A stretch of 64,000 bases of DNA from Hyphomicrobiales bacterium (GCA_027487555.1 JAIYDI010000032.1:7249-71248), one strand, 5' to 3'; positions 24,098-55,066 are shown, counted from the first letter of the stretch. Translations and numbers: made by a program. The notes: a model not told the origin generated them from the sequence alone.

Positions 24098-24120
24098 CCT
24101 CCCACGATGGGAAGGTCAAG
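24098..24120 (-). promoter_or_regulatory. CueR-type promoter-operator of the multicopper oxidase
   Basis: The minus strand reads TTGACCTTCCCATCGTGGGAGG. It shares the 17-mer CTTGACCTTCCCATCGT with the copA box and lies 50 nt upstream of ATG 24048. Confidence 0.65.
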
Positions 24121-25300: not shown

Positions 25301-25373
25301 GAAAATCGTCCCAATTGCGTAAAGCATCACCCCCGACTAACGGCGGCGACACACAAATTCTGTGCAAAAGGAA

Positions 25374-29553: not shown

Positions 29554-29812
29554 TTCACGCTCCCTATAAGTTTTGAAAGCCACACCCGATTCCACTTGCG
29601 ATGGCTTCAGCGACGGAGTTTGACCGGCTTCAAGCCTAGCAATTTGGAAGTGCCCTCCACGCCACATCGCGAGGTGCCAAACAGACGAGACCATCAGCAG
29701 GTAGGTCAAGTCACGTGTTGGAGACCAGATGTCCAAACGCTAGATCGGCCTTGGCGATCTTCCATCCTCGAGTAGCGAATTTGGGCCAATGCGCACCCAG
29801 GGTCTTCCTGGT

Positions 29813-30262: not shown

Positions 30263-30286
30263 TTGACCTTGCCATTGTGGGAAGGT
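30263..30286 (+). promoter_or_regulatory. CueR-type promoter-operator in the divergent cueR/ATPase intergenic region
   Basis: TTGACCTTGCCATTGTGGGAAGGT has a 19-nt spacer to CAGAAC. It is 40 nt upstream of ATG 30326. Confidence 0.7.
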
Positions 30287-34082: not shown

Positions 34083-34536
34083 GGGTGTCTTGACAACGAC
34101 TTTTGTTTCAAACTTGACGGCCTGAAGGACCCCCGATGTGGCGCCGTTCCACCGTTCCACCGTGCGCCCCAGTGCAGCAGAAACTTCCTACCTCAATTGC
34201 AGATACTCATTTTGTTGCGACTTTGATTTCTTTCAAACACCACTAGGTGGTCATCGTCACGCAGCTGACCTGCCGTCAATTAGTTCAAGTGCACATTTGA
34301 ATTGGGCATCCATGAGAGCTTGGACGGTCCCGCAACTGTTGCGAACACCATGGTGCTGCTCTTTGTGAGGGTCCCACGGCAGCCGCCTGAGCCCTGCCGT
34401 ATCGGCCCACCGCCGGATGCGCGTTCGAAATCGGAAACGCGCTCAAGGGCTGATCACTATGCTTTGCCCACAGTCACGGAACCGGCCTTAATTGTGACAG
34501 CTGCACGCCATAGCGAGCGGGCGGGGTGGAGTCGGA

Positions 34537-35232
34537 GTGCGTGACACAATTTTGGAAGGACGTGGAACTTCCGAGCCGCCGAACGCGGCGCGCTTTAGCT
34601 CAGTTGCCATTCCCGGCTCGTTGCTGGTGCACATCGCAATCCTGATGGTTGTTTCAATGACTGCAATCGACCGGCCACTTCCGCCCTCCGCGCTGCCCCG
34701 CAGCATCGAAGTCGAGATTGTAACCGAGCTCGAATACAGGGACGCTTTCGAACTACCTCCAAAAGCAACTATTGCGCCGCTTGTCGTGCCGCAGCTTGCA
34801 GAGGAGCCAAACGCTACCCCACCGGCTCCGGCAGACGGAATGAAGCATGCTACCGAACTCTTCGCCAGCGGGGTGCTTGCCGATCCAAAAAACCGACAGG
34901 TGCGAGAAACGCTCCCGCTGTTAGAGGGGACCGAACGCATCGTACAGTTATGTGTCATCGAAGGTCTCGAGCAACTGCGTTCCGAAAAACCGGAGCCGCT
35001 TCCAGACTCCATTTCAGCCGCTGCATTTGGTCCCTCAATCCTGCGTGGGTATACACTTGAAGCGAACGACGCCGCGTACCGAGCTGCACAAAAGTGGTAT
35101 CGGCTGGCTTTTGCCTGCACCGTCGCCCCGAACTTTGCCGGAGTTGAAGCCTATGCTTTCAAAACCGGCGAGATTATCCCGGAGGCCGATTGGGATGCGC
35201 ACAATCTCATTGCGGAGGACGAGGATGAATAG
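34537..35232 (+). CDS. DUF930-like protein with N-terminal membrane anchor
   Basis: 231 aa. IVQLCVIEGLEQL...AAYRAAQKWYRLAFACTV...FKTGEIIPEADW follows the QLC...WY.L.F.C...IP..W pattern I associate with DUF930. Confidence 0.5.
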   Translation: MRDTILEGRGTSEPPNAARFSSVAIPGSLLVHIAILMVVSMTAIDRPLPPSALPRSIEVEIVTELEYRDAFELPPKATIAPLVVPQLAEEPNATPPAPADGMKHATELFASGVLADPKNRQVRETLPLLEGTERIVQLCVIEGLEQLRSEKPEPLPDSISAAAFGPSILRGYTLEANDAAYRAAQKWYRLAFACTVAPNFAGVEAYAFKTGEIIPEADWDAHNLIAEDEDE

Positions 35233-35880: not shown

Positions 35881-36843
35881 TCAGCTTGGCGGTGGAGCGG
35901 TACCATATTGCTGACTGCCTCCCATTGCCCGGACAATCTGTGTGCCTGCGCTTCCGTCAAGGATGGCGAGTGATTGGTCCAGCCGTCCAATGCCGGCAAT
36001 TCCGCCGGTCAGCTCGGCGAAGGTGGAAGCGGCTTCCACCTTGGGAGCCATCGAGCCAGCGGCGAATTCCTTTTTTCGTATGGACTCTGGTGTTGTCCGG
36101 CGTATCGCCTCTTGGTGGGGCGTACCCCAATCCGAATATACTGCGTCGACGTCAGTCAGCAACAAGAGTGCGTCCGCACCAATTTCCAGCGCCAAGACTC
36201 CCGCAGTGCGGTCCTTATCGATGACTGCCTGAACACCGACCAAGCTCCCGTCACCGCGTCGGACGACAGGAATGCCGCCCCCGCCAGCGCAGATCACAAT
36301 CACATTCGAATCCAGCAAGAGTTGGATGACATCGACGTCCGGAATACGCAATGGCGGTGGCGAGGGCACGACACGGCGGTACTTGTCGCCGTCCAGTGCG
36401 ACGATCCAACCGCGGGCGGCGGCTAGCCGTTGTGCTTCGTCCTGCTCATAGACCGGACCGACCGGCTTTGTCGGATTGCGGAAAGCAGGATCATTCGCAT
36501 CGACCTCGACCTGCGTCAGCAATGTCGCAACTTTTGGTCCGTTGGGCAGAGCGTTCTCCAGTTCCTGTTCGATCAGATAGCCGATCATGCCTTCGGTCTC
36601 GGCTCCGAGGATATCGAGGGGATAGGCTTCGTCCGGACTCTGGGCCGCTGCCTGGAGGGCGAGAAGGCCGACCTGTGGCCCGTTGCCATGGGTGACGACG
36701 ATTCGATGGCCGGCGCCGACCAGCCCAGCGAGAGAGGCAGCCGCGCGGCGGACGTTGCTGCGCTGCGTTTCGGCCGAGATAGACTCCCCCCTTCGAAGGA
36801 GAGCGTTGCCGCCTAGGGCCACGACGATGAGCATCGCGGTCAC
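35881..36843 (-). CDS. arcC: Carbamate kinase
   Basis: 320 aa. [28 protein letters not shown], and C-terminal SMAPKVEAA motifs. Confidence 0.9.
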
Positions 36844-37841
36844 CCAGCGATCGTGGCGACGAGGATCGCCTTGATGGTGTGCATGCGGTTCTCAGCCTGG
36901 TCGAACACGATCGAGGCAGGGGACTCGAACACCTCGTCGGTGACCTCCATGCAGTCGATCCCGAAGCGCTTGGCGATGTCGGCGCCGACCTCGGTTTCCG
37001 CGTTATGAAAGGCCGGCAGACAGTGCATGAACTTGGTGTGAGGGTTGACGGTCGCGGCCATCACTTCGCGGGTGACGCGGTAGGGTGTGAGTTCGCGGAT
37101 GCGCTCGGGCCAGGCAGCCTCGTCCTCGCCCATCGACAGCCAGACATCCGTGTAAAGAAAGTCGGCGCCCTTGACCGCTTCCTCGACACTTTCGGTGACG
37201 GTGATGCATCCACCTGTCTCCTTGCCGAGCGCCCTCAGATGCTCGACGAAGGGTTGGTCCGGCCAGAGACTGCGTGGCGCCGCTATGCGCATATCCATGC
37301 CGACCTTTGCAGCACCGACGGCCAGCGAGTGGGCGACGTTGTTCCGCCCATCGCCGAGAAAAGTCACCGCCAGTCCTGAAAGATGCTTGTGCGTAAATTC
37401 GCGCATGGTCATGAAATCGCCAAGCGTCTGGGTCGGATGGGTCTCGTTGGTGAGGCCGTTGTAGACCGGCACGCCGGCATAAGCTGCGAGTTCCTCGGCG
37501 ATCTTTTGTCCAAAGCCGCGATACTCAATCGCGTCATATACCCGGCCCAGCACGCGGGCCGTATCCTTCATCGATTCCTTGTGACCGATCTGGCTCCCGG
37601 ATGGCCCAAGATAGGTGACATGGGCGCCCTGGTCGTAGGCCGCAACCTCGAAACCGGTTCGGGTACGGGTCGAATCTTTCTCGAAGATCAGGGCAATGTT
37701 CCGCCCGGCCAGCCGTTGCCGTTCGGTACCGGCTAGTTTGGCGGCCTTGAGTTCGCTTGCGAGCTTAAGGAGGAACCGGATGTCGGCCGGAGAGTAGTCG
37801 TCGAGCGTCAGCAGGCTGCGGCCGCGAAGATTGATCGGCAT
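36840..37841 (-). CDS. arcB: Ornithine carbamoyltransferase (catabolic context)
   Basis: ORF to 38051 trimmed to ATG 37841. Motifs [30 protein letters not shown] and HCLPA. Confidence 0.9.
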
Positions 37842-37861
37842 GGCAAAAGGTCTTCCTTGTC

Positions 37862-39100
37862 TCAGAGGGGATCGCGAGCGATCGGACAGGTCATGCAATG
37901 GCCACCGCCACGCCCTCGTCCGAGCTCGGAACCGGCGACAGTGATCACTTCGATGCCAGCCCGGCGGAGCAAAGTGTTGGTGTAGACGTTGCGGTCGTAG
38001 CCGACGACGACGCCAGGCTCTATGGCGACCACATTGTTGCCGTCGTCCCACTGCTCGCGCTCGGCCTCATAGCTATCGCCACCAGTGGCGACGACCCGCA
38101 GTCGATCGAGGCCGAGCGCCTTTTGGACGACCTCGACAAACGGTCCGCTCTCGGCCGTGATCTCGATGCCGGTTGGTCCAGTGCCAGGGCGGAGCGAGAA
38201 TGCCCGGATACGCTCGACGACAGGCGGGTAGATCGTCACGAGGTCGCGATCGCAGAAAGTGAAGACCGTGTCGAGATGCATGAAGGAGCGGTCGCGTGGC
38301 ATCAGCGCCGCGATAATTCTTGTCGTGACACCCTTGGCGAAGAGGCGCTTGGCCAGCGTCGCCACGGCCTGCGGCGTCGTACGCTCACCCATACCGATAA
38401 GGACGACCCCGTTCTCGACCGGCATGACGTCGCCGCCCTCGAGCGTGGCGATACCCGTCCCATCCGAACCGTCCCACCAGGTTTCGAATTCTGCGTCCCG
38501 GAAGTGAGGATGGAAGCGGTAGACGACCTCCACATTGGTCGCTTCCGGGCGGCGTGCGGGCCAGAACATCGGATTGATCGTCACACCGCCGTGGATCCAG
38601 CATGAGCTGTCTCGGGTAAACATCTGGTTGGGTAGCGGCGGCAGGACAAAGTCCTGCGGTTCCATGGTCCGCCCTGCTAGGCCCGCCGGCGTAAAGGGAA
38701 GCTCGGCACGGGCGATGCCGCCGATCAGGAAACGGCCAAGCTCGACTGCCGGCATCTCGTCCAGCCAGCCGCGCATCTCGCCGACCATGTCCTCGCCGAC
38801 TGCGGCGACACTGACGCGCCGGTCGAGCAGCCATCGCCGTGCTTCGGCCAGGGCAAGCGTCTCGCCGAGCAGGCTGCCGAAATCAAAGACAGCGACGCCT
38901 CGCTCACGCAGCGCGTCTACAAAAATGTCATGTTCCTGGCGAGCCTTCTTGACCCAGAGGACGTCGTCAAACAGTAGAGCGGCGCGATTGTCCGGTGTCA
39001 GTCTTTGCAGGCTGAGGTCAGGGCGGTGGACTAACACCTCGCGGAGCCGACCTACTTCCGAAAAGGCGCCAAGTCTTGTGGCAGTGTTGATTGCGTTCAT
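37862..39100 (-). CDS. arcA: Arginine deiminase
   Basis: 412 aa. [21 protein letters not shown], and C-terminal [10 protein letters not shown] with the catalytic Cys. Confidence 0.92.
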
Positions 39101-40563
39101 AGCGGACTGATACTCCCGTTCCAGATGAGGTACGCGGCGGCGAGACCAGCGACGACAAGCGCGACGGCGATCAGTGCCTCAAGGATGGTGAAGCTCTTTT
39201 CACCGCGTTCGCGCCGCGCCATGACATAGATGAAGATTCCCGGGGCGTAGAGCATTGCGGCCATGAAGAGGTAGGTGGGACCGGCCGCATAGACCAGCCA
39301 GGCGCCATATAGCGTGGCGACCAGGCCTGCGATCAGATCGCGTGTCCGGCTCTCGCCGGGGCGATAGGCTTCGCCGGTGATGGCAAGCTTGGCCGCATAG
39401 GCGCCCGAGAAGACGTAGGGGATGAGGATTGCCGTCGAGGCGATGTAGAACAGCGCCGTGTATGTGCTGTTGGCAAAGAGCGCGACGATCAGAAATATCT
39501 GCACCAAGCCGTTGGTGATCCAGAGCGAAGTCGCCGGAGCACCGCGCTTGTTCTCGGCGCCGAAGAAGCGCGGCATCGTGCCGTCGCGGGAGGCGGCGTG
39601 GGGGATTTCGGCGGCGAGTAGCGTCCAGCTCAGGAAAGCGCCTAGCACCGAGACGACCAGCGTGATGTTAACGAGGATCGCGCCCCACGGGCCGACGAGA
39701 TGCTCAAGCACCCCTGCCATGGACGGGTTCTTCAGCGCCGCAAGTTCCGGCTGGGTCAATATCCCCAGCGACAGCAGCGAGATCAGCGCATAGAGGGCAA
39801 GGGCGACGAGGAAACCCGCCATCGTCGCAATGCCGATGTCAGAGCGACGCTCAGCGCGGGCCGAGATCACGCTCGCCCCCTCAATGCCGATGAAAACCCA
39901 GAGCGTGACGAGCATGGTGCTCTTGACCTGATCAAGTATCGAGCCGAGTTCGACGTTCCCTGTGCCAGTGAAATCGAGGGTAAAAACGTCGACTTTGAAA
40001 GCGACGATAGCGAGAACGATGAAGAGTATGAGGGGCGCGATCTTGGCGATTGTAGTCACGAGGTTGACCAACGCCGCCTGACGCACGCCCGACAGGATCA
40101 GCGCATGGACAAGCCACAGCACGACCGAAGCGCCAACGATGGCCTGCCAAGTATTGCCCTCCCCGAACGGCGGAAAGAAGTACGAGAGAGCGCTGAACAT
40201 GACGACGGCGTAGGAGACATTGCCGATCCAGGCGGAGAGCCAATAGCCCCAAGCGCTGTTGAAGCCGATGAACGGCCCGAAGCCGGCTTTGGCATAGGCA
40301 TACGGTCCGGCATCAAGCGCCGGCTTTCTCATGGAGAGGCCCTGATAGACGAAGGCCAGTGCCAGGATGCCGACGCCGCTAATCGCCCAGCCGATGATGA
40401 TGGCGAGCGGTGCCGCGCCGGCCGCCATGTTCTGCGGCAGGCTGAATACGCCTGAGCCGAGCATGGAGCCGATGACGACGGCGGTGAGCAAGCCGAGCCC
40501 TAGCTTGCGGGATGCCGCTGCCGCGGGCTTTGGTGTGACCGTATCGATGGCGATGGTGGTCAT
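39097..40563 (-). CDS. arcD: Arginine/ornithine antiporter (APC family)
   Basis: ORF to 40656 trimmed to ATG 40563. [27 protein letters not shown] and 12-13 hydrophobic spans. Its stop overlaps the arcA start. Confidence 0.85.
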
Positions 40564-40657
40564 GGCGCGTTGCCGAAGGTCGGCCCTCCTGGTTGAATCG
40601 GCTCGGTTCGAGCCTGTTGCATTCTGCGAGAACGAGAATTTGAGGCTTTGACGCACA

Positions 40658-41941
40658 TCAATCGGGACGTGCCCGTCGAGATGATTTCGTCGCGGCAGCG
40701 GGCCGCCGATTGGAAGGATTGTCCGCCGGCGTCGGCGCCAGTTGCCGAGGCAGGTTCAAACTGGCGATCGCAGCAAGCGCAACAATTGCCGCAGCGGCAA
40801 AGAAAGCGGTGCCCTCTTGCCCGTTGAGACCGAAAAGCAGACCAGCACCGGCTGCCCCAATAGACTGCCCGAGACTCACTGCTGCACTCTGAATGCCCAG
40901 TCCCACGCCTCGGCTTCGGGCTGACCTTTTTGCCACCCAGTAGCTCAACAGCGGGCTGATCAAACCCGCCGAGGCAGCCACTAAGGCAACCGCAGCGAGC
41001 ACGCCACCAAAGCCGACAATGCCTGGGACGAGAACCAGACCAAGCGCCATCGCCGCAAAGGCTGGTGCGATCAGCCAGCGCGTCGCGGCCGCCTTGACGA
41101 AGGGCGAAAACACGATGGCCTGGACGGCAAACATCACCGCGCTGCAGGTGGCAAACATGATCGCCAGATCGGCAGACGTCATCGCACCATCACCGCTCCG
41201 CAGCGTGAGACCAACTTCAAAGGCCCCTAGCCCCACGGCAGAGGCAACGGCGAGGACGAGAAGCTGCAACTTGCCGGGCAGCGGCGCGGTCGAACGCTGC
41301 TCTGGCAATTTGGGTCCGTCCGCGGCAGCCCGTTCGTTCGAGAGCAGGGTACCTATGCCCGCGGCGGAAATTGCAGCCAGACTGGCCGCCAACAGGAAGG
41401 GACCAGAACCAGGCAAACTGGAAGCGCCACTCCAGCCGGCGGCGAAACCGCCAAGCATCGGCCCAAAAAAGAAACCGGCAATCGATGCCATGCCGACCGC
41501 CGCGAAGGCTTTCGCACGGCGATCATCGTCGGCTTCCACATCGGCAATGAATGCAAGAACGGTGGGCACGACGGCTGCGGCAAAACCTCCGTTCAGGATG
41601 CGGCCCGCATAGAGGACAGCCAGATTGGAGGCAAGAGCGGTGGCCGCCAATGTGATGGCAAAGCCCAGCAATCCCGCAATCAGGATGGGCCTTCTCCCAA
41701 TCGAGTCGGAAAGTCGGCCCCAGAGGATAGCCACCGCGAGGGGCGCCGCGACATAGGCAGCCGTCAGGAGACCGACATGTCGAGCAATCGCGGCAGAGTC
41801 GGACGTCCCGGCAAGTCGCGCCACCGTGGCCGGAAGAACTGGCAGGACCACGCCGAAGCAAAGCGATACGACGAATGCCGCAGCAAGTAGGGAGGCCAGT
41901 ACCCACTGTGATATGCGCAAACTCGCGTTGAGCTGCGTCAC
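40658..41941 (-). CDS. MFS transporter (12-TMS type)
   Basis: 427 aa with MFS motif LWGRLSDSIGRRPILIAG. Its start overlaps the CopB-like stop by 4 nt. Confidence 0.8.
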   Translation of the reverse strand: MTQLNASLRISQWVLASLLAAAFVVSLCFGVVLPVLPATVARLAGTSDSAAIARHVGLLTAAYVAAPLAVAILWGRLSDSIGRRPILIAGLLGFAITLAATALASNLAVLYAGRILNGGFAAAVVPTVLAFIADVEADDDRRAKAFAAVGMASIAGFFFGPMLGGFAAGWSGASSLPGSGPFLLAASLAAISAAGIGTLLSNERAAADGPKLPEQRSTAPLPGKLQLLVLAVASAVGLGAFEVGLTLRSGDGAMTSADLAIMFATCSAVMFAVQAIVFSPFVKAAATRWLIAPAFAAMALGLVLVPGIVGFGGVLAAVALVAASAGLISPLLSYWVAKRSARSRGVGLGIQSAAVSLGQSIGAAGAGLLFGLNGQEGTAFFAAAAIVALAAIASLNLPRQLAPTPADNPSNRRPAAATKSSRRARPD

Positions 41942-44361
41942 GTTGATGCCACGGGGGCAGGCGCAGACGGCGCTGCGTCGGTAGTCGATGAGTTGCTTGG
42001 CCGAATGCCCTCAAGCTTGGTCCGCTTGAGCAGAAGGGCATTGATGGCCACTAGCGCCGAGCTGCCAGACATGGCGAGCGCTGCGATCTGCGGGCTGAGC
42101 AGGAACGGGTAGAACACGCCCGCGGCGATCGGGAAGGCGACGAGATTGTATCCCACCGCCCACCACAGATTCTGATGCATTTTTCGTAGCGTCGCACGCG
42201 AGAGCGTCATTGCGCCCACAACGTCGTACGGATCACTCTTCATCAACACGATGTCGGCGCTCTCGATGGCCACGTCGGTGCCTGCGCCGATGGCGAAGCC
42301 GACATCGGCCTGGGTCAGGGCCGGGGCATCGTTGACGCCGTCGCCTACCATTCCGACCTTGAGGCCTTGGGCCTGCAGCTCCTTGATCTTCTCGGCCTTC
42401 TGTCCCGGCAGGACGTCGGCCAAAACGATGTCGATGCCAAGCAGATCGGCGATCCGCTTGGCAGTGCCGGCATTGTCGCCGGTGAGCATCGCAACGCGCA
42501 CCCCCTGCTCGTGCAGTTTCTTGATCGTAGCGATTGCTGTCGGGCGTGGGGCGTCGGCAATGGCGATCAGCCCGAGAAGTTTGCCGGATCGGGCCACGTG
42601 AATGACGGTGCGACCTTCGCCCTTGAGCGCTTCGGCCTTCTCGCCTAGCGTCAGGAGATCGATTTTCTGCTCATCCATCAGGCGACGGTTGCCGAGGAAG
42701 ATCGGATCGCCGTCAATTGAGGCACTGGCGCCCTTGCCCTCGATATTGAGGAAGCCGGTGACCTTGGGAATGTCCAGGTCCTTGGCCCGCTCTACGATGG
42801 CGACGGCGAGTGGATGGTCCGACCCCTGATCGACAGCGGCCGCGACCCGCAAGAGATCATCGGGCGCAACAGCAGGTGCGGGGATGACATCAACGACCTT
42901 CGGCTGGCCCATGGTAAGCGTCCCAGTCTTGTCGAAGACGATCACCTTGAGCTTGGTTGCGTCTTCCAGAGCAGCCGCATTCTTGAACAGGATGCCGTTG
43001 GCGGCGCCGAGGCCGGTGCCGACCATGACCGCCATCGGCGTAGCGAGGCCCAGTGCATCGGGACACGCGATGACGAAGACCGTGATGGTCAGCGTCAGGG
43101 CAAACAGCAGCGGTTGCCCGAGCCACCAGAACCAGACGGCGAAGGTGGCGAGCCCAATCACGATCGCGGCCAGCACCAGCCATTGCGAGGCGCGATCGGC
43201 AAGCAATTGCGCGGGCGCTTTGGAATTCTGGGCCTCCTGGACCAGCTTGACGATCTGGGCCAAGGCCGTATCGGCGCCCACCTTGGTGGAGCGGTAGCGC
43301 AACGTGCCGCTCTTGTTGATCGTGGCGCCAATAACGCTGTCCCCGACTTTCTTGGTCACCGGCATGGATTCCCCGGTCAGCATCGATTGATCGATGGTCG
43401 ACTCGCCCTCGATCACCTCGCCATCCACGGGAAGCTTGTTGCCCGGCCGAAGCACCACGATGTCGCCCAGCACGACTTCCGCGGTCGCGACTTCGATTTC
43501 CTTGCCGTCGCGAAAGACCGTGGCCTTTGGCGGCGCCAGATCAAGCAACGCCCGGATCGCCGCCGAAGCTCCGGCGCGGGCCCGCATCTCCAGCCAGTGG
43601 CCGAGCAGGATGAATACAAGAAGGACGCTCGCCGCTTCGAAGAATTGTTGGCCCTCAAAGAAGAAGGTGGCGCCCACGCTGAACAGGTAGCCGGTGCCAA
43701 CGCTGAGCACGACCAAGACGGCCATATTGAGCACGCCGTTGCGCAGGGCGCGCCAGGCGGCCACCAGGAAGGGCCATACCGGATAGAGGATGGCGGCGCT
43801 GGCAAGCAGGAACATGGTGAGGTTCATGCTCAGCCCAAATGGCGGGCTTATGAGGGGTTCGCCCAGGCCCATAGGCTCCAAAAGAAAGATCGGGATCGAG
43901 AAGACAAGGCTGACCAGAAAGCGGTTCCGCATGTCCTTGACCATGCCTTGCATGTCCCCGGAGCCGTGACCCATCTCGTGAGCCATGGCATCACGGGAGC
44001 TCTTGGCGGCAACCGCTCCCTTGCCATCCCCCGCGGGCATGGTCATGCCCGCGTGTCCTGCATGCTCATCCCGCGCCGGCGCGACGGACTCTTGGGCGCG
44101 CGCCGGCTGCACCGTTGTGCTGTTTGGGCTGCACAGGTGGCGCGGCAGGACTTCGCCCCGGCAATGGAAGCCGCAGGCCTCGATTTCTCGCGCGATTACC
44201 TCAGCGCTGGTTCTTGCGTCGTCGAAGGTGACGCTCGCTGTCGTTGAGGCGGCGTTCATGCTCGCCGCGGTTACACCGGGGAAAGCGGAGAGCCGTTTCT
44301 CGACCGCCGCAAAGTCGAGAATGCTGGTGAGATTGCCGACGTCGAAGTTCGCTTTTTTCAT
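41938..44361 (-). CDS. CopB-like P1B-3-type ATPase with CPD instead of CPH and a Cys-less HMA-like N-terminus
   Basis: 807 aa. HMA-like fold without CxxC (VGNLTSILDFAAVEKRL). His/Met-rich DEHAGHAGMTMP...AMAHEMGHGSGDMQGMVKDM. TM motif VIACPDALGLATP; DKTGTLT; GDGVNDAPAL; MSGSSALVAINALLLK. Confidence 0.9.
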   Translation of the reverse strand: MKKANFDVGNLTSILDFAAVEKRLSAFPGVTAASMNAASTTASVTFDDARTSAEVIAREIEACGFHCRGEVLPRHLCSPNSTTVQPARAQESVAPARDEHAGHAGMTMPAGDGKGAVAAKSSRDAMAHEMGHGSGDMQGMVKDMRNRFLVSLVFSIPIFLLEPMGLGEPLISPPFGLSMNLTMFLLASAAILYPVWPFLVAAWRALRNGVLNMAVLVVLSVGTGYLFSVGATFFFEGQQFFEAASVLLVFILLGHWLEMRARAGASAAIRALLDLAPPKATVFRDGKEIEVATAEVVLGDIVVLRPGNKLPVDGEVIEGESTIDQSMLTGESMPVTKKVGDSVIGATINKSGTLRYRSTKVGADTALAQIVKLVQEAQNSKAPAQLLADRASQWLVLAAIVIGLATFAVWFWWLGQPLLFALTLTITVFVIACPDALGLATPMAVMVGTGLGAANGILFKNAAALEDATKLKVIVFDKTGTLTMGQPKVVDVIPAPAVAPDDLLRVAAAVDQGSDHPLAVAIVERAKDLDIPKVTGFLNIEGKGASASIDGDPIFLGNRRLMDEQKIDLLTLGEKAEALKGEGRTVIHVARSGKLLGLIAIADAPRPTAIATIKKLHEQGVRVAMLTGDNAGTAKRIADLLGIDIVLADVLPGQKAEKIKELQAQGLKVGMVGDGVNDAPALTQADVGFAIGAGTDVAIESADIVLMKSDPYDVVGAMTLSRATLRKMHQNLWWAVGYNLVAFPIAAGVFYPFLLSPQIAALAMSGSSALVAINALLLKRTKLEGIRPSNSSTTDAAPSAPAPVAST

Positions 44362-44437
44362 AATTCAACTCCTGGAGCCCAGTTCCGGCTGCGGTGCGTT
44401 TAGTCCCGGTCGCAACGCGGGGGATTCTGTCCGGCGT

Positions 44438-45526
44438 TCACGGGTCTACTCTGGGTGTGAGCGTGTTAAGGCCATTCAGCCGTCCGATCCCGAGTGCGGC
44501 ATTGGTCGCCGATATGGACGCCGCTGCGTCGGTCTCGATGCCCGCAAGGGCACGGATCGCGTCTATGGTTTCGGGGATCACGATGGCCTGGTTGTCGACC
44601 ATGTACGCGTAGAACAGTTCGTCGCCCTGAACCGTCAGCATGTCCGCCCAGAGCGCCACTTCGTAGAGATCGCCGTGCGGGCGACCAATGTCGAGCATCC
44701 ATTCCTTGATGCTGTTGAGGGCTTTCAGCCCGTGATCGCCGCTGATGAGGGCAATGCGCGAGGAGGCACGGAACGCATCCAGAACCTCTTCCTTGCCGGC
44801 AGTTTTTGTCATTCGGACGTTCCAGTAGTGCAGATGGCCAAGCGTTTGTGGAACCTTTACCGCCATCGTCACGACATCGAGGCTGGGATCGACGCTTTGC
44901 GCGTCGGGACCCTGGTGACTCGGTATGCTCGGTTCGGGTACCAGGGTGTTCATGATGCCGGTCTCGTGACTCTCCCAGGGATCGGTGGCCCGCCGCAGCA
45001 GGGTTCCCCGTGCGCTGCGCAGCAGGCCGGCCCGCTTCAAGGCAGTCAGCGTCCGCACGATCGAAGTCGTGTTGCAGGAAACGACGCGAGTACTTTCCCG
45101 GCCTATGGCGCTTTCATAGGACGACTCCGCCACAAAGGAGTGGCCGGTTACGGCATGCTTTTCGCCGCCTTGGATAGCGAATTTGAGACCCAGCTTCCGG
45201 TAAGCCTCGATGTTGCCCGCGGCGATGTTCTTGGGTGTGCAATCCACTACGACATCGGCGGCTGCAAGCAGTTCGGGAACCTCGCCGCTTACCGCTATTC
45301 CCGCCGCCCGCATCGCCGCTGCGGTCGGCGCTGTCGCGCCGAAGATCCCGAAGCCCTTGTCCACGGCGACCGCCAGACGCCAATCCGAGCCGACATCGGC
45401 AACGCCGGCAAGCACCATGTCGGACTGCAGGCTGACCGCTTCGGCCACGCGCTTGCCGATGACGCCGTAGCCATTGACCGCGACGCGAATTTTGGGTCCT
45501 GCCGATCCAATCGCTTGTTCTCCCAT
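44438..45526 (-). CDS. Type II (archaeal-type) phosphorylating glyceraldehyde-3-phosphate dehydrogenase
   Basis: 362 aa. IRVAVNGYGVIGKRVAEAV, QGGEKH, RVVSCNTTSIVRTL (catalytic Cys), IPSHQGPD and MVDNQAIVIPETIDAIRAL align along their whole length with the archaeal GAPDH sequence I remember (AINGYGTVGKRVADAI...VVSCNTTGL...LPSHHGPD). Confidence 0.85.
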   Translation of the reverse strand: MGEQAIGSAGPKIRVAVNGYGVIGKRVAEAVSLQSDMVLAGVADVGSDWRLAVAVDKGFGIFGATAPTAAAMRAAGIAVSGEVPELLAAADVVVDCTPKNIAAGNIEAYRKLGLKFAIQGGEKHAVTGHSFVAESSYESAIGRESTRVVSCNTTSIVRTLTALKRAGLLRSARGTLLRRATDPWESHETGIMNTLVPEPSIPSHQGPDAQSVDPSLDVVTMAVKVPQTLGHLHYWNVRMTKTAGKEEVLDAFRASSRIALISGDHGLKALNSIKEWMLDIGRPHGDLYEVALWADMLTVQGDELFYAYMVDNQAIVIPETIDAIRALAGIETDAAASISATNAALGIGRLNGLNTLTPRVDP

Positions 45527-45535
45527 CGCTGACTC

Positions 45536-46957
45536 CTAAATCCGGTAGCCGAAAGTTGACATCATGCCGGTCGCCATGTGGTAGAGGTGGTGACAATGGA
45601 AGGCCCATTGGCCGGGATTGTCGGCATCGACGGCAATGGTGACCGACCGCATCGGCGGCACGAGCACCGTGTCGCGAACCGCGCCCGAAAAGCGCTCCCC
45701 GTCGATCGCCACCACCTGAAAGTGGTGACCGTGCAGGTGCATCGGATGGGCCATCATGCTGGTATTGGTCAGCGTGACTTCGACGCGGTCGCCCCTATCC
45801 ACGAGGATCGGTGCGCTGGTCTCAAGGCCCCAGCGATAGGCGGCCATGTCGCCAGTCAGCGCCATATCGAATGACTTGTCGGCCGTACGGGGGGCCAGCG
45901 GTGCGATGGCGCGGAGTTGTGCTTCCAGCGCGAGGTCGAGCGCAGGAGCCGCCGCGCCCGCTTGTGTGGCGAGCTTCGCTACGTCTGCCCCGGCTGGGCT
46001 GAGGATAATTCCGGTTCGTTCCTGACTTCCTTCGCGCAGTGCCAGGATCGGGAACGATCTGGCTTCACCCGGCAACTGCAGCCGAACATCGATGCGCTGT
46101 CCCATGGTCATCGGAAAACGTCGGCCTTTGAGGGAAACGACGTCTTGCCCGTCGACAGCGATCAGTTCGCCTTCGAGCTCACCAAAATCGATCGTGAAGG
46201 CCGTCGCGGTGGCGCCGTTGATGATCCGGACACGCACCCGTCCGTCGCGCTCCACCGCCACGATTTTCGGATCGTCCAGGGTGCGGTCGTTGGCAAGATA
46301 GGCGTCATAGTCGATATCGTTGAGGTCGACTGCAGCGGCCCCGCTATCCATGGCGTCCATGGGCTCCGAGGAGGGCATCGCCATGTCACCATGCTGCATC
46401 GGCGCGGCGCCGCCCCCGGTTAGGCCGGCCAGCAATTCATCAGCGGAGGAGAACGAAAAGTCGTGCAGCAGAATGACGACCTCCTGCTCGTCTCGTCCTG
46501 CGTCGTCAGGGTTCGCGACAATCAGCGGCGCGGCGAGGAGTGCCTGTTCCTGCAGGGTGTGGGCGTGTAGCCAATAGGTGCCGGGCCTACCGACCGGAAA
46601 GTCGAAAGCACGGTCGCTCCCGGCCCCGATGAGCGGAAGCGGGGCATCGGGAACGCCATCGCTCGGCCAAGGGGGTGTCAGGCCATGCCAATGTACGATC
46701 GTCGGCTCAGCGGTTTCGTTGCGAAGCAGGAGTTTGAAGGCGTCGCCCGCCTGGTAATGGAGCCCTGCTGATCCGTTGGGCTGCTGCACTCCGAAAACGC
46801 TCGCCGCCCGGCCATTCACCTCTATCGTGCGACGTACGATGCTGAGCAATTTCTCGCCGGGCGGCATTACCGCAAAAGCCGGCCGCGACAGCGCCCAAGG
46901 CAGCGACAAGGCTGCAGCTCCGGAAATTGTGCCCTTGAGAAGTTCGCGACGTTTCAT
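45536..46957 (-). CDS. Multicopper oxidase (CopA/PcoA-like), Tat-exported; paralog of 22618..24048
   Basis: ORF to 47266 trimmed to ATG 46957 (AAGGAAG RBS; MKRRELLKGTISGAAALSL). Copper sites VHWHG, WLHAH, HPMHLHGH and HCHHLYHMATGMM. Confidence 0.9.
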   Translation of the reverse strand: MKRRELLKGTISGAAALSLPWALSRPAFAVMPPGEKLLSIVRRTIEVNGRAASVFGVQQPNGSAGLHYQAGDAFKLLLRNETAEPTIVHWHGLTPPWPSDGVPDAPLPLIGAGSDRAFDFPVGRPGTYWLHAHTLQEQALLAAPLIVANPDDAGRDEQEVVILLHDFSFSSADELLAGLTGGGAAPMQHGDMAMPSSEPMDAMDSGAAAVDLNDIDYDAYLANDRTLDDPKIVAVERDGRVRVRIINGATATAFTIDFGELEGELIAVDGQDVVSLKGRRFPMTMGQRIDVRLQLPGEARSFPILALREGSQERTGIILSPAGADVAKLATQAGAAAPALDLALEAQLRAIAPLAPRTADKSFDMALTGDMAAYRWGLETSAPILVDRGDRVEVTLTNTSMMAHPMHLHGHHFQVVAIDGERFSGAVRDTVLVPPMRSVTIAVDADNPGQWAFHCHHLYHMATGMMSTFGYRI

Positions 46958-47445
46958 GTTTCGCTTCCTTTGTGATTTGTTAGATTCGGGCTGTGCGCCC
47001 CAGACCGCGCCACCGCCGCCTCTGCCCAGAACGCGACGAAACTTAGGGCCCATACCGAGGCGCAGCCGAACAGAAGCCACTTGAAGTCGGAACCGATTGC
47101 GAAGTTGACCACGGTCATCAGACCGATCGATGCCGCGCCGCCGATGAAGGCGCCTACGACCGCGATGGGCCGACGCTCGCGGAAGGACGTTGCAGCAAGC
47201 GCGAGAGTGAGGAAACCGGTCGCCAGTGCGTAGCCGCCCAGAACGCGGAACACTTGGGTGAGCCACGCTCCAAGCCGTGGACCTGTCTCGGCGACCTCGG
47301 CGGCTGACAACCCGATATAGCGAATGTCCTCGGCCAACAGGGATGGCCGAAGGAAGATGAAATAGACGCCGATTCCGGCGACAATCGCTCCGCCCAGTGC
47401 CAACAAGATTGATGAAGGGGACCAGGGCTTGGCCAAGGACGTCAC
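46954..47445 (-). CDS. Integral membrane protein, unknown function
   Basis: 163 aa with four hydrophobic spans. Its stop overlaps the oxidase start by 4 nt. Confidence 0.55.
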   Translation of the reverse strand: MTSLAKPWSPSSILLALGGAIVAGIGVYFIFLRPSLLAEDIRYIGLSAAEVAETGPRLGAWLTQVFRVLGGYALATGFLTLALAATSFRERRPIAVVGAFIGGAASIGLMTVVNFAIGSDFKWLLFGCASVWALSFVAFWAEAAVARSGAHSPNLTNHKGSET

Positions 47446-47461
47446 GGGGTTGCCTGCCGGG

Positions 47462-47992
47462 TCACTGCGCTTGACGGCTCAGCCAGTCGCGCATCTTTGC
47501 TATCTCGGCTTCGTGGGCAGCGATAATCTCATTCGCCCAAGCTTTAACTTCCGCATCGGAGCCGTGCTGAAGGACGGCTTTGGCCATGTCGATGGCGCCC
47601 AGATGATGTGCAATCATCGCCTGTGCGAAGGCCTTGTCGGGATTGGCGTCCCGTGCACCCATCATCATGGGCGCTTCCATCTTCTTCATCGCGTCCATGT
47701 ACGCCCTCGATGCGGCCGACATGTCGTCCATTGCGGGCTTCTGTTCTCCCGCAGCGCCGCCCGTCATGCCGCCTTGCATCATGCCCTGCTGCATCATCTG
47801 CATCATTTGCTGCATCATCGGCATCATGTCCGCGCATTGCGCCTGCATGTCGCCCTTGGCTTCTTTGGGGGCTGGGGTCACCGTGGCGGGCGCCGCGGTT
47901 GCGTCGGGGTGATGTGCGTCGGTCTGCGCGAGGGCCGTTCCGGACAGGACCAGGAATGCGGCAGTGGTGATCATTCGAATCTGGGTTTTCAT
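47462..47992 (-). CDS. DUF305 family Met-rich periplasmic protein (CopM-like), second copy
   Basis: 176 aa. Signal peptide, the tract DMMPMMQQMMQMMQQGMMQGGM, and the DUF305 core AFAQAMIAHHLGAIDMAK...IIAAHEAEIAKMRDWL. Confidence 0.85.
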   Translation of the reverse strand: MKTQIRMITTAAFLVLSGTALAQTDAHHPDATAAPATVTPAPKEAKGDMQAQCADMMPMMQQMMQMMQQGMMQGGMTGGAAGEQKPAMDDMSAASRAYMDAMKKMEAPMMMGARDANPDKAFAQAMIAHHLGAIDMAKAVLQHGSDAEVKAWANEIIAAHEAEIAKMRDWLSRQAQ

Positions 47993-48159
47993 GTGGGGGG
48001 TCTCCTATCGACCGTGCTTTCCGGGAACCGAAGAGCGGGTTTGCCTAGCAGTCAGCCGCGCGGTGCGTCGGCCGATGGTGCAAAGATCTCGTGGACGAAA
48101 TGGGTCAGGCGGCCACTCTGGTTGGTATCAAACGCCTGCGAGGCCGCGCGGGCGTGATG

Positions 48160-48564
48160 TCAGGCCGGGAGCCTGGGAGGACGCCGGTTGGCTTGAGGGT
48201 CGATGCTGCCCAAGCCAAGGATGGCAGGCAAGCATGAGTGGACGCGGGTCAAGTCGCCCTGGGCAAGCATGGACCTCGCTCCGCATAGGCCACCCGAAGC
48301 GCAGCAGCCAGATCCAGTCGCGTTAGAGCAGCACGCCCCGTGGTCAGCGGCGCAGCCACTATCGGGGCGATCAGTCTCAGCAAAGAGTTCTTCCGTCCCA
48401 TGTTCTGTAACAAGAGTATCTAGCGCCGCTGCCGTCGTCGCACGCGTCCCAGCAGGCCAAAGCTGATCCGCACTGGCCGATCCGGCGCTGGCGAGAAGTC
48501 CGCCTGCAGCCAAGATCAGCGCAATCAACAAGGTTCGGAAGAGATGGGAGAACGTGGACGTCAT
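48160..48564 (-). CDS. Small secreted Cys-rich protein, HC...RPP-tail family member 5
   Basis: 134 aa. Signal LLIALILAAGGLLASAGSASA, GCAADHGACCSNATGSGCCASGGLCG, C-terminal DPQANRRPPRLPA. Confidence 0.45.
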   Translation of the reverse strand: MTSTFSHLFRTLLIALILAAGGLLASAGSASADQLWPAGTRATTAAALDTLVTEHGTEELFAETDRPDSGCAADHGACCSNATGSGCCASGGLCGARSMLAQGDLTRVHSCLPAILGLGSIDPQANRRPPRLPA

Positions 48565-48764
48565 GTGCTCACGTTAGCCGAGGGGGGCTGCCTTTGATTT
48601 GATCGAGATCAAGGTTGCAACGAATTGACCGACCGCATGTTGCACCCTCTGGCAGTTTATTTTCCGCGGGACGTGAGGCCAGGGTAGAAAGCGACCTGAG
48701 AATCATCGCCCGACGGTCCACAAAGTGGCAAGTCACCGGGTCAAGCTATCATGAGGGACGATTG

Positions 48765-50054
48765 ATGGCCGAGGCAATTGACGCTCTCCTTCCCGTGGTC
48801 GCCGAGCTCGCTCCCGAACGGCTTAATCAATCTTGCCTTTGCATTACTCTCGACCGCGATGAGCTCGGCCTCCAACTCGATCGCGAGGCGGGAGAGTTTG
48901 GATTCTTCAAAACCCTGACGGAGCAGCGACCGCATCTGTTCTCCAATGTCCCGGTGTTTCTGTCGGCCTCAGCCCTGACCGAAATGCGCGAGATCGTCGA
49001 GGCCATCGAGGCGACTACCCAACTCCCCGGATATCGAGAGGCCGTGCTGGCGTGGGCGCCCGACATTTCGCAGAAGGACCACGGCCCGGCGGGCGCGCTC
49101 ATGGGCTACGATTTTCATCTCGATGACGACGGCCCCAAATTGATCGAGGTGAACACCAATGCGGGCGGAGCCTTCCTCAACGCCGTTCTTGCACGCGCGC
49201 AAATGGCTTGCTGCGGCGATGTCGCCATTCGCTACGAGGACGGGCTGATCGGCGGCTTCGGAGAGCGCATCGCAGCGATGTTTCTGGAAGAGTGGCGCCG
49301 CCAGCGCGGTTCGGGTTCGCCGGGGACGATCGCCATCGTCGATGATGCCCCCCTGGAACAGTATCTCTATCCGGAGTTCGTACTGACTCGGCAGATGCTC
49401 GCCAAGCACGGAATGGACACCGTCATCGGCGATGCGCGCGAACTGCAATATCAAGGCAACGAACTTTTCCTCGACGGCCGCCGAATCGACCTTGTTTACA
49501 ATCGCTTGGTCGATTTCACGCTGGATCGGCCTGAGCACGCCGCCCTGCGTGCTGCCTATCAGAATGGCGCTGCGGTGGTTACGCCCAATCCCCACCATCA
49601 CGCACTTCTGGCCAACAAGCGCAATCTGACGCTTCTCTCTGACCCGGATGCTCTCAACATTTTCGGCCTTTCAAGGCGTATGCAGCAACGCCTCGCCGGC
49701 GTTCCGCAGACCAGGCTGGTCACGCCAGCAAACGCTGACCAATTCTGGCAATCGCGAAAGGGATTGTTTTTCAAGCCCCTGTCCGGGCACGGCAGCAAGG
49801 CCGTATACCGGGGTGACAAGCTGACCAAGTCTGTCTGGGCCGAGATCGCCCGCGGTGACTACGTCGCACAGACCTTCGCCGCTCCGGGTATGAGAATGAT
49901 CAGGCTCGAAGGCGAGCCGGCGTCACGCAAGTTGGATATTCGCCTATACACTTACCAAGCCAAACCACTACTGGTCGCCGCTCGCCTCTATCAGGGGCAG
50001 ACGACGAATTTTCGGACCCCAGGTGGCGGGTTTGCCCCAGTTTTGGTTGTCTGA
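48765..50054 (+). CDS. ATP-grasp-like protein (possibly the circularly permuted type), uncertain
   Basis: ORF from 48615 trimmed to ATG 48765 (GAGGGA RBS). MGYDFHLDDDGPKLIEVNTNAGGAFL and a C-terminal LDIRLYTY...GGGFAPV. The family assignment is tentative. Confidence 0.45.
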   Translation: MAEAIDALLPVVAELAPERLNQSCLCITLDRDELGLQLDREAGEFGFFKTLTEQRPHLFSNVPVFLSASALTEMREIVEAIEATTQLPGYREAVLAWAPDISQKDHGPAGALMGYDFHLDDDGPKLIEVNTNAGGAFLNAVLARAQMACCGDVAIRYEDGLIGGFGERIAAMFLEEWRRQRGSGSPGTIAIVDDAPLEQYLYPEFVLTRQMLAKHGMDTVIGDARELQYQGNELFLDGRRIDLVYNRLVDFTLDRPEHAALRAAYQNGAAVVTPNPHHHALLANKRNLTLLSDPDALNIFGLSRRMQQRLAGVPQTRLVTPANADQFWQSRKGLFFKPLSGHGSKAVYRGDKLTKSVWAEIARGDYVAQTFAAPGMRMIRLEGEPASRKLDIRLYTYQAKPLLVAARLYQGQTTNFRTPGGGFAPVLVV

Positions 50055-50454: not shown

Positions 50455-51102
50455 ATGTGCTTTTCTGCAACAGCCAGTTTCACTGCCGGGGCTGCACTTC
50501 TGATCGTCGGCACGGTAACGGTGCGACGCGCCCAGCGGCGTGTTGAACTGCCCTTTGCGCTGATCCCGGTGTTGTTCGGCGTGCAGCAGCTGATCGAGGG
50601 CGGCCTCTGGCTGACGTTTCCCGACAAGGCGCCGCTGCTGAATACGATGCTGACGCATCTCTATTCGCTTTTTTCGCACGTTCTCTGGCCGACCTACGTT
50701 CCGATCGCAATTCTGCTGCTTGAGCCCACGCCTTGGCGGCGCAGAGTGCTGGTCGCCATCTCGATCGCGGGCGCCGCGGTGGGCCTGTACCTGCTGTATT
50801 TCCTTCTAAGCCTACCGATCGTCTCGCAAGTCGAAGGACAGCACATCAGCTATTTTTCCCCGCACTTCTATATCGTCGCTGTGATGATAATGTACGTTCT
50901 TGGCACCTGCATAAGCATGCTCTTTTCGAGTCACAAGGCGGTTAGACTATTCGGTGTCGCGACCTTTGTTGCGTTCGTCGCAACCTATGTTTTCTACGCC
51001 GCCTGGCTCATCTCCATTTGGTGTTTTTTCGCTGCAGCTCTGAGTTTCCTTGTGTTGCTTCATTTTCCTCGGCTATCGGGAGGAGAGGGACGCTCGGCAT
51101 GA
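50455..51102 (+). CDS. Integral membrane protein, unknown function
   Basis: 215 aa with six or seven hydrophobic spans, beginning MCFSATASFTAGAALLIVG. Confidence 0.6.
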   Translation: MCFSATASFTAGAALLIVGTVTVRRAQRRVELPFALIPVLFGVQQLIEGGLWLTFPDKAPLLNTMLTHLYSLFSHVLWPTYVPIAILLLEPTPWRRRVLVAISIAGAAVGLYLLYFLLSLPIVSQVEGQHISYFSPHFYIVAVMIMYVLGTCISMLFSSHKAVRLFGVATFVAFVATYVFYAAWLISIWCFFAAALSFLVLLHFPRLSGGEGRSA

Positions 51103-54436: not shown

Positions 54437-55066
54437 ATGGCCACCAACAAACTAACCGACACCCAACGCGTTATACTTGCCGCCGCAGCAGCTCGCGACA
54501 GCGGGCTCGTCCTGCCGCTTCCCAGTTCGCTCGGCAGTAACCGCGGCACGCTCGGCATCGTCCTCAAGAGCCTCCTCACCCGCAAGTTGGTCACTGAGCG
54601 CCCGATCATGCCGGATGAGGATCTCTGGCGCGACACGGCCGAACTGGGCCGCACTACACTGGTGATATCCGTGGAGGGTCTGATGCTGATGGGAATCGAC
54701 CCAATTGACCACGTCGTCCACAAGGACGCAGACGGGAACATCGTCACCGACGATGGCGGCATTTCGCCCGGCCGTCGACGTCCCGACGTTCACCTCGATA
54801 CCGGCATCGAAACTCCAGACCCAAACCCCTCAAAGACCGGAATGCCGAAGGAGGGCAGCAAGCTCGCTACGCTCATCGCCTCGCTGCGCCAGGCGGAGGG
54901 TGCGACGATCTCGGAGCTGATGGAAGCTACAGGCTGGCAAGCACATTCGGTGCGCGGGACCATCAGCGGCAACCTCAAGAAGAAGCTGAAACTCGAAGTC
55001 GTGTCCGAGGTGCTCGACGGTCGCGGCCGTGTCTATCGCATCCCGGCCGAGGAAGCCTCGGCATGA
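54437..55066 (+). CDS. DUF3489 domain protein
   Basis: 209 aa (GAAGGAGGG RBS). C-terminal GATISELMEATGWQAHSVRGTISGNLKKKLKLEV...GRVYRI. Confidence 0.75.
   Translation: MATNKLTDTQRVILAAAAARDSGLVLPLPSSLGSNRGTLGIVLKSLLTRKLVTERPIMPDEDLWRDTAELGRTTLVISVEGLMLMGIDPIDHVVHKDADGNIVTDDGGISPGRRRPDVHLDTGIETPDPNPSKTGMPKEGSKLATLIASLRQAEGATISELMEATGWQAHSVRGTISGNLKKKLKLEVVSEVLDGRGRVYRIPAEEASA

Follow-up and report, generated by a model that had tools for sequence, protein, structure and literature searches.

FNR-family control of arginine deiminase (ADI) operons is established through Anr (PMC12403760) and FlpS (PMC5039431). The arcDABC operon of Pseudomonas aeruginosa depends on Anr, which owes its name to this regulation, and supplies ATP under anoxic conditions (PMC12403760). 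ADI genes are also known in the company of copper genes. The staphylococcal ACME/COMER island carries an ADI cluster together with an acquired copper ATPase (copBL), a multicopper oxidase (MCO) gene (mco) and CopL-type genes on one mobile element (PMC7029739). The subject of this report is a similar combination in a 64,000-nucleotide stretch of DNA from a Hyphomicrobiales bacterium (GCA_027487555.1, JAIYDI010000032.1:7249-71248), called the window below. Eleven co-directional minus-strand genes, running from 48564 to 35881, place copper genes and a type II (archaeal-type) glyceraldehyde-3-phosphate dehydrogenase (GAPDH2) in one chain with arcDABC.

The arc genes of the chain are those of P. 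aeruginosa, in the same order and with an FNR-family palindrome upstream of arcD. The difference lies in the setting: here the operon abuts the copper/GAPDH chain without a terminator, and the palindrome overlaps the stop codon of the upstream major facilitator superfamily (MFS) gene. ADI and copper genes share one mobile island as they do in ACME. However, ACME belongs to another phylum, has a CPH-type CopB and a lipoprotein CopL, contains no GAPDH, and its modules are separate loci rather than a co-directional chain. An earlier reading of the sequence (the original prediction) had proposed that the chain couples copper export and oxidation to a respiration-independent ATP supply. In the reading favoured here, to which we give an even chance of being right, the chain is transcribed as two neighbouring units, both activated under oxygen limitation by a regulator of the CRP/FNR family (FixK, Anr or FNR type).

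FNR-type boxes and CueR operators

When the window was searched for TTGA-N6-TCAA, four perfect palindromes were found against 0.6 expected. Two of them were missed by the original prediction: one stands at the chain head, the other a short distance before arcD. The head box, an FNR/FixK/Anr-type sequence (TTGATCGAGATCAA, 48599..48612), lies in the region between the first chain gene and a divergent ATP-grasp gene; the distance from its centre to the ATG of the former is 41.5 nt. The second box, of the same type (TTGATGTGCGTCAA on the minus strand, 40648..40661), is in the MFS-arcD gap, where it shares bases with the stop codon of MFS, and 91.5 nt separate its centre from the arcD ATG downstream. 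A CAGAAT hexamer, read by eye from the sequence, sits at a suitable distance for an arcD promoter. The other two palindromes are outside the chain. One (29620-29633) is about 73 nt upstream of the likely start of a gene pair for a BNR-repeat protein and a cytochrome c (28268-29553, minus strand), and one (34223-34236) is about 300 nt upstream of a DUF930 gene (34537-35232).

CueR operators were sought as ACCTTCC-N7-GGAAGGT within a promoter having a 19-bp spacer. They occur in canonical promoter context upstream of both CPC-type copA genes (copA1 and copA-YHS; sites 16146-16166 and 30266-30286), and weaker CueR-type operators precede an MFS gene (12907-12927) and the gene for the second MCO, MCO2 (24096-24116). 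Between 35881 and 48800, that is in the chain and its head, this search found none. CueR control of the chain was rejected, as the operators are confined to the other cop promoters of the island. Judged by these matches, the left half of the island (13-33 kb) is a separate, predicted CueR-type copper module, and the chain is a paralogous copper module that lacks CueR sites and carries putative FNR-type boxes.

The boxes recur in related loci. Neighbourhoods of GAPDH2 were collected by tblastn and clustering of open reading frames, giving 84 loci, of which 42 are dereplicated loci of at least 10 kb. The GAPDH2 loci (1.3 Mb) hold 62 perfect boxes, compared with 9.4 ± 3.1 in first-order Markov simulations (about 6.6-fold), and eleven control palindromes of the same composition occur 0-12 times in them. 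Around GAPDH2 the intergenic density of boxes is 5.6 times the coding density. A coding match, TTGAC(G/C)G(C)CC(C)TCAA, is found about 790 nt into the GAPDH2 gene itself in several loci (L039, L044, L049, L052, L056, L065, L069, L070 and L082). It is conserved with the protein, so that raw box counts are inflated and no regulatory site is to be read there.

Position is conserved as well. Six Marinobacter loci have a perfect TTGAT-N4-ATCAA between a divergent CPC-type P1B ATPase gene and GAPDH2, and in five alphaproteobacterial loci a box stands at class-II distance before CopL-like/MCO genes that diverge from EamA-GAPDH2-ATP-grasp. The box in pSinB lies between CopL-like and ATP-grasp genes, arranged as in the window. 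The spacing of 41.5 nt from box centre to ATG and a TAnnnT hexamer at -12..-7 are shared by the window and pSinB, which would point to a class II promoter and probably a leaderless mRNA. A Shinella plasmid with arcD-arcA-argF-arcC-USP has one box about 67-70 nt before arcD and another about 70 nt before USP, two where 0.04 are expected. In Devosia MAG39 a single box heads a 15-kb chain and none precedes arcD, even with two mismatches allowed; the arcD box is thus not universal.

With FNR/FixK-type boxes both at the chain head and before arcD, arcDABC probably has its own oxygen-responsive promoter and thus is not obligatorily one operon with the copper genes. The original copper-coupling hypothesis is borne out in that the linkage recurs, but copper as the trigger is not, the chain having FNR-type boxes in place of CueR operators.

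Genes of the chain

All eleven genes are present as originally predicted, and the intergenic spacings are, in order, 167, 16, -4, 9, 76, -4, 94, -4, 14 and -4 nt. The four ATGA-type 4-nt overlaps are correct because the spacings hold with biologically sensible starts; those adopted for MCO, arcD and arcB are 46957, 40563 and 37847. The largest internal gap, at 47993-48159 (167 nt), is not one of the two that had been singled out as the larger. The absence of terminators was confirmed by a hairpin scan, which returned 11 hairpins in the region against 9.2 expected and none within the internal gaps. Compared with shuffled sequence, the internal gaps show no excess of stable structure (z = -1.3, +0.75 and -0.70), and an Rfam search of the gaps gave no match at E ≤ 0.1. 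An inverted-repeat search yielded just two pairs: a weak one of 13 nt within the 167-nt gap, and one at 48612-48648 that may belong to the leader of the divergent gene.

Family labels were checked by Pfam and NCBIfam profile searches with curated cut-offs. The functional labels given to the chain genes were upheld, leaving one membrane protein of 163 aa without a family. The first gene (48160..48564, minus strand, as are all that follow) encodes a small secreted Cys-rich protein. It is the protein that had been labelled "HC/RPP", and it is only weakly CopL-like (NCBIfam CopL_fam E = 4e-4, 21 bits, below the cut-off of 40); pSinB has a homologue at the equivalent position. It is followed by a DUF305/CopM-like periplasmic metallochaperone (47462..47992; PF03713 E = 7e-14, and NF049983 CopM 88.9 bits against a cut-off of 90) and by the 163-aa membrane protein (46954..47445), which has no Pfam or NCBIfam match and is kept beside the MCO in Devosia MAG39, where the counterpart (L016) is 56% identical. 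The MCO (45536..46957) was identified by Pfam/NCBIfam as a three-domain enzyme; it has a Tat signal (MKRRELL...) and is a 47%-identical paralogue of MCO2 (22618-24048).

The product of 44438..45526 is a type II phosphorylating GAPDH, scoring 438 bits with NF003251 (cut-off 185) and 311 with TIGR01546 (cut-off 233). It aligns over its full length with the archaeal structures 1CF2, 2CZC, 2YYY and 1B7G (1CF2 E = 1e-78, residues 15-347) and retains the catalytic Cys motif SCNTT (VVSCNTTS in the alignment with the archaeal structures). Its GAPDH activity is a prediction from sequence.

The next gene (41938..44361) encodes a P1B-type ATPase of the CPD subtype, with CPD, GYN(X)4P and MSGSS motifs, a degenerate HMA domain lacking CxxC and a short His/Met-rich stretch. 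It had been called CopB-like. It does belong to the copper P1B family, but its transmembrane (TM) metal site is CPD and not CPH, so it is not a classical CopB. The motifs ACPDALG (TM6), GYNLVAFP (TM7) and AMSGSS (TM8) assign it to P1B-3a, an uncharacterised Cu-ATPase subtype defined from three Rhizobiales proteins (Cubillas et al. 2017, PMC5552934). CPD, YN(X)4P and MSGSS of that subtype match the window pump exactly (PMC5552934), and copper as the transported metal here is a prediction from sequence. The pump is 38% identical to the paralogous pump of the left module, the MCO pair being 47% identical. Translationally coupled to it is an MFS efflux-type transporter (DHA1/Tet-like, 40658..41941), and the same order of CPD-ATPase then MFS is found in pSinB.

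The remaining genes encode the ADI pathway, in the order arcD-A-B-C and with all four proteins reaching curated family cut-offs. They are the arginine-ornithine antiporter ArcD (39097..40563; TIGR03810 630 bits, cut-off 591), the arginine deiminase ArcA (37862..39100; NF002381 561 bits, cut-off 414), the catabolic ornithine carbamoyltransferase ArcB (36840..37847; TIGR00658 402, cut-off 281, and NF003286 514.6, which is borderline to its cut-off of 515) and the carbamate kinase ArcC (35881..36843; NF009008 457 bits, cut-off 361).

Type II GAPDH in related loci

A scan of one genome per GTDB species gave 461 relatives of the GAPDH, and identity and taxonomy were taken from the best 80 of these. 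The best 80 are 69-89% identical and come from Alphaproteobacteria, Gammaproteobacteria (Marinobacter, Thermomonas, Luteimonas), Acidobacteriota, Rhodothermales and others. GAPDH2 also occurs on 34 plasmids, including those of Rhodococcus, Corynebacterium, Meiothermus and Pontibacter, and the gene is clearly horizontally mobile. A DNA search of plasmids for close relatives of the locus gave best matches that are partial and 74-81% identical. In P. aeruginosa, a type II GAPDH gene is among the accessory elements most predictive of low virulence; several other predictive elements fall in the GAPDH bin, one of them with genes for an integrative and conjugative element relaxase (PFGI-1 class), SoxR and a MerR-family regulator (PMC7448275).

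The synteny search called for by the original prediction placed a P-type ATPase within 10 kb of GAPDH2 in 27 of the 42 dereplicated loci. Among the P1B ATPases near GAPDH2 in the 84 loci, 22 are CPC, 20 CPD and 19 CPH, and directly adjacent GAPDH2-pump pairs occur in several layouts (divergent, upstream and downstream). Further copper markers (MCO, CueR, CusA, ICMT-like, YVTN, CopL-like) are present in 28/42. The juxtaposition is therefore not a peculiarity of this strain, GAPDH2 lying beside copper P1B ATPases and MCOs in Alphaproteobacteria, Gammaproteobacteria, Acidobacteriota and on plasmids of Actinobacteria. On the A. tumefaciens plasmid pAt the copper context consists of CusAB, DUF411, a CsoR-like regulator, ICMT, GAPDH2, CueR, a P1B pump, HMA and DUF305, and on a Hoeflea plasmid it consists of MCO, L,D-transpeptidases, cytochrome c, GAPDH2 and a P1B pump.

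Another recurrent context is one of low oxygen and storage carbon. Overall, the neighbours of GAPDH2 include phosphoketolase, acetate kinase, glycogen phosphorylase, debranching enzyme, USP, CBS, beta-CASP RNase and P2-type ATPase genes. A P. zucineum plasmid has a low-oxygen set of USP, PFOR, ADH, GAPDH2 and a P2-type ATPase. Indioceanicola has UbiB, GAPDH2, CBS, GlgP, PGM and GlgX, with ICMT, YHS and a P1B pump upstream, and Rhodococcus has phosphoketolase, USP, UbiB, GAPDH2 and a P1B pump. The copper theme and the low-oxygen/storage-carbon theme co-occur in 18/42 loci. The pairing of substrate-level ATP routes with metal pumps that the original prediction pointed out is seen elsewhere too: on Polaromonas pPNAP02 (L089, 2801-19236) one co-directional chain runs HMA, PPK2, HMA, P1B ATPase, DUF2933, DUF5676, ATP-grasp, amidotransferase, transaldolase (Tal), PGM, phosphoketolase (Xfp), acetate kinase (AckA) and transketolase (Tkt), so that a phosphoketolase/acetate kinase pathway follows the P1B ATPase.

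The arcABC genes with ArcD or YfcC are found near GAPDH2 in about 10 alphaproteobacterial loci, in at least four arrangements (Hoeflea, Tabrizicola/Neotabrizicola and relatives, Alterinioella, Devosia). The 15-kb co-directional chain of Devosia MAG39 (L016) contains a beta-CASP RNase, a thymidine-phosphorylase-like gene, GAPDH2, the 163-aa membrane protein, MCO, CPD-ATPase, a Prs-like gene, arcD, arcA, arcB and arcC. Its arc proteins are 78-94% identical to those of the window, and its Prs-like, that is phosphoribosyl pyrophosphate (PRPP)-synthase-like, gene is at 15352-16317, after the CPD-ATPase. The nearest plasmid arc homologues lie among phosphoketolase, MBL-fold hydrolase, USP and CBS genes. 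In pSinB (L001) a module of CopL-like, MCO, CPD-ATPase (92% identical) and MFS genes occurs without GAPDH or arc, and thymidine-phosphorylase-like and then Prs-like genes (8137-10631) follow MFS in place of arc. The modules are thus separable, and the GAPDH-copper-arc linkage is recurrent but modular.

The island around the chain

The chain is part of a mosaic accessory island, and its host is an alphaproteobacterium resembling Devosia. Divergent from it is a gene for a 429-aa protein (48765..50054, plus strand) that has more than 8000 homologues and to which Pfam, NCBIfam and PDB sequence searches gave no match. An AlphaFold2 model of moderate confidence (pLDDT 68.8, pTM 0.73) predicts a circularly permuted ATP-grasp fold. 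It matches eukaryotic-type glutathione/homoglutathione synthetases, glutathionylspermidine synthetase and YgiC/YjfC (E 1e-14 to 1e-9, TM-score about 0.5-0.6). On the strength of these glutathione and glutathionylspermidine synthetase-type matches, the product is predicted to be a circularly permuted ATP-grasp ligase. The ATP-grasp gene is near GAPDH2 in 20 loci and adjacent to it in 9, which makes it the commonest immediate neighbour after the pumps, and on Moraxella and Psychrobacter plasmids it ends copAB-DUF305-P1B-tatABC modules.

Further right, on the plus strand, are a DUF6629 membrane protein (50455..51102), a recurrent neighbour in related loci, and a P2-type (Ca/Mg-like, HAD-IC) cation ATPase (51338..54172) of the pump class of low-oxygen loci, as on the P. 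zucineum plasmid and in BCAM0318 of lxa (PMC3721108). Directly right of this ATPase a triad of DUF3489, DUF2924 and a large serine recombinase (54437-57314, plus strand) forms the right bound of the island and is likely an integration module or island boundary. ARAGORN found no tRNA gene anywhere in the window. The G+C content is about 0.57-0.60 at 26-35 kb and rises to about 0.62-0.64 in the chain.

To the left, a second copy of DUF305 and MCO (21499-21948, plus strand; 22618-24048 and 24148-24615, minus strand) occurs with a YtkA/FixH-like protein and is accompanied by L,D-transpeptidases (24620-25330 and 26231-27493). At the left edge is a Cas3 gene with HD, DEAD and Cas3 C-terminal domains (1149-3980, minus strand). 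A ParB-N/DNA methyltransferase fusion (6296-7717) and a terminase large-subunit-like gene (8182-9663), both on the plus strand, lie to the left of the island and may be what remains of a prophage or gene-transfer agent.

Proposed regulation and alternative explanations

According to the proposed model, unit 1 (48564 to 40658) would comprise the genes for the CopL-like protein, CopM/DUF305, the membrane protein, the Tat-exported MCO, type II GAPDH, the CPD-type P1B ATPase and MFS. Its promoter would have the box at 48599-48612 in class II position, and the transcript would probably be leaderless. For arcDABC, as unit 2, transcription would start separately from the box at 40648-40661. Read-through from unit 1 into unit 2 is probable because no terminator lies between them. 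As respiration fails, ATP would come from arginine via carbamate kinase, the accessory GAPDH would keep lower glycolysis going, and Cu(I), a documented GAPDH inhibitor, would be exported and oxidised at low oxygen. Cu(I) prevails, and is more toxic, in the absence of oxygen. The rationale for bundling these genes might be that P-type pumps need ATP and that GAPDH and Prs are documented targets of Cu(I).

Several points weigh against this model. The window encodes no CRP/FNR regulator gene, and the boxes are sequence matches from which we infer regulator binding and a response to oxygen. The head box could serve the divergent ATP-grasp gene alone, and a CopRS or CsoR-type regulator encoded elsewhere may sense copper for the chain. 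No box was found in the Polaromonas, Indioceanicola and Rhodococcus loci. The A. tumefaciens pAt and Hoeflea plasmid loci are plain copper islands, with a CueR/CsoR-type regulator beside GAPDH2 and no box nearby. Since boxes are absent from some relatives, the regulation would be lineage-specific, and arc could be driven by read-through.

The tight packing, the four overlaps and the lack of terminators would suit a single copper-induced operon, the model of the original prediction, in which copper export and oxidation are joined to respiration-independent ATP synthesis (GAPDH with phosphoglycerate kinase, and carbamate kinase) and to alkalinisation by ammonia. The near-identical Devosia MAG39 chain with no box before arcD fits it, as do the Polaromonas chain joining a P1B ATPase to Tal-Pgm-Xfp-AckA-Tkt and the ACME precedent of arc with copBL (PMC7029739). 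However, the chain has no CueR operator, as against four elsewhere in the island; the MFS-arcD gap contains a canonical FNR-type box, which has a counterpart before arcD of Shinella; and pSinB has the CopL-like/MCO/CPD-ATPase/MFS module without GAPDH or arc. Because of the operator evidence a single copper-induced operon is less likely than two units, and we consider it improbable. Alternatively, copper, low-oxygen and arginine genes might gather on mobile elements through shared niches or transfer routes with no mechanistic coupling, their packing being a by-product of repeated insertion and deletion. The mobility of GAPDH2 (69-89% identity across phyla among the best 80 of 461, and 34 plasmids), the highly variable gene order around it, the frequency of transposases and recombinases as neighbours, the G+C shift along the island and the recombinase triad at 54437-57314 would all be expected from such accretion. 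Yet accretion leaves unexplained why genes of these classes come together again and again, in many different orders and with ATPases of three subtypes, and why they share a box motif. The packing, moreover, extends to translational overlaps. P1B genes number a few per genome, whereas the flanks of GAPDH2 hold about one per 21 kb. Accretion without coupling seems to us unlikely.

An explanation compatible with the two-unit, low-oxygen model is that the metabolic genes back up the targets of copper. The type II GAPDH would be a Cu(I)-tolerant or extra-copy replacement for the type I enzyme, the Prs-like protein would likewise stand in for PRPP synthetase, and the ATP-grasp ligase would supply a copper-buffering thiol or peptide, so that metabolism is kept running under copper stress. 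Cu(I) binds and inhibits GapA in S. aureus (PMC6350627), inhibits GapA of S. pyogenes once glutathione is exhausted (PMC7733945), and inhibits Prs in S. aureus (PMC10249872). The association of GAPDH2 with P-type ATPases (27/42 loci within 10 kb; three P1B subtypes and many arrangements in the 84 loci) points the same way. So does the presence of GAPDH2 inside pure copper islands, on A. tumefaciens pAt (CsoR-like, ICMT, GAPDH2, CueR, P1B) and the Hoeflea plasmid, and that of a Prs-like gene downstream of the CPD-ATPase in Devosia MAG39 and pSinB. The ATP-grasp partner on the Moraxella and Psychrobacter copper plasmids and its structural match to glutathione and glutathionylspermidine synthetases are also consistent with it. 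On the other side, the type II GAPDH retains the catalytic Cys (SCNTT), so that copper tolerance is not evident from its sequence; the chain is without a CueR operator; and these genes are also found in the company of glycogen, phosphoketolase and USP genes without a copper link. A literature search found no experimental work on bacterial type II GAPDH in this context. We regard target back-up as unlikely. A broader suggestion, which we think likewise unlikely, is that type II GAPDH, the Prs-like protein and the ATP-grasp ligase form a widespread mobile "metabolic armour" of copper islands, the first two replacing Cu(I)-poisoned GapA and Prs and the ligase making a copper-buffering peptide, deployed at low oxygen, where Cu(I) is most toxic. 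If true, this would be resistance by target replacement, alongside efflux.

Comparison with described systems

The usual account of copper resistance is one of efflux, oxidation and sequestration. In the present case enzymes of central metabolism turn up repeatedly inside copper islands, which come from four or more phyla and many plasmids. The archaeal-type GAPDH is one such enzyme, and relatives have genes for a PRPP synthase-like protein, phosphoketolase and acetate kinase. This suggests that sustained glycolysis and substrate-level ATP synthesis are a selected part of surviving copper, low oxygen, or both, an idea that fits the recent findings of Cu(I) poisoning of GapA and Prs. The locus offers testable candidates in the CPD-type P1B pump, the bacterial type II GAPDH and the ATP-grasp ligase family of more than 8000 members. 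The lesson for annotation is that genes with the look of copper genes can be part of an FNR/FixK regulon and not of a CueR regulon, even when one island holds both.

All of the gene families, FNR-controlled arc operons, copper islands, and arc with cop genes on one element are already known. The original prediction took the linkage to be undescribed; for arc with copper this does not hold, since it is known from copBL of ACME (PMC7029739), and for GAPDH with copper it does, as no paper was found. A search for type II or archaeal-type GAPDH and copper in bacteria returned archaeal papers and one P. aeruginosa accessory-genome table only. No paper was found that links type II GAPDH, or the ATP-grasp ligase, to copper pumps and low-oxygen genes across phyla, nor one in which an MCO and P1B module is under FNR-type control, as predicted here, instead of CueR-type control; both are apparently new. 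The 20 CPD-type pumps near GAPDH2, including those of Acidobacteriota, widen the P1B-3a subtype beyond the three described proteins.

A glycolytic GAPDH inside a metal(loid) resistance cluster near an MFS exporter is also a feature of the GAPDH-ArsJ arsenate-resistance pair, which was reportedly described by Chen et al. in Mol Microbiol in 2016 and in which the GAPDH is said to be type I, with ArsJ as partner. The present chain differs in having a type II GAPDH, an MFS protein that is not ArsJ, and copper partners, and no ars genes are among the window open reading frames examined. Arsenate detoxification of the ArsJ type (GAPDH plus MFS) was rejected for the chain, as the NCBIfam matches of its MFS protein are to Tet/DHA1 families and ArsJ is absent among the matches listed.

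The low-oxygen-activated (lxa) locus of B. cenocepacia, which we group with similar dormancy islands of the Anr/DosR type, combines an FNR/Anr-like TGA-N6-TCA motif, a cation P-type ATPase and a metal-dependent (beta-CASP) RNase, and its deletion mutant has a defect in nucleoside and ribose utilisation (PMC3721108). The text of that paper has no mention of "glyceraldehyde" or "copper" and does not name a copper P1B ATPase, MCO or type II GAPDH (PMC3721108). Nevertheless, the lxa gene classes resemble the surroundings of GAPDH2 in relatives. Of the lxa-like traits, the window has the FNR-type motifs and a P2-type ATPase without USP or the RNase, which are present in the Devosia relatives and the Shinella arc locus.

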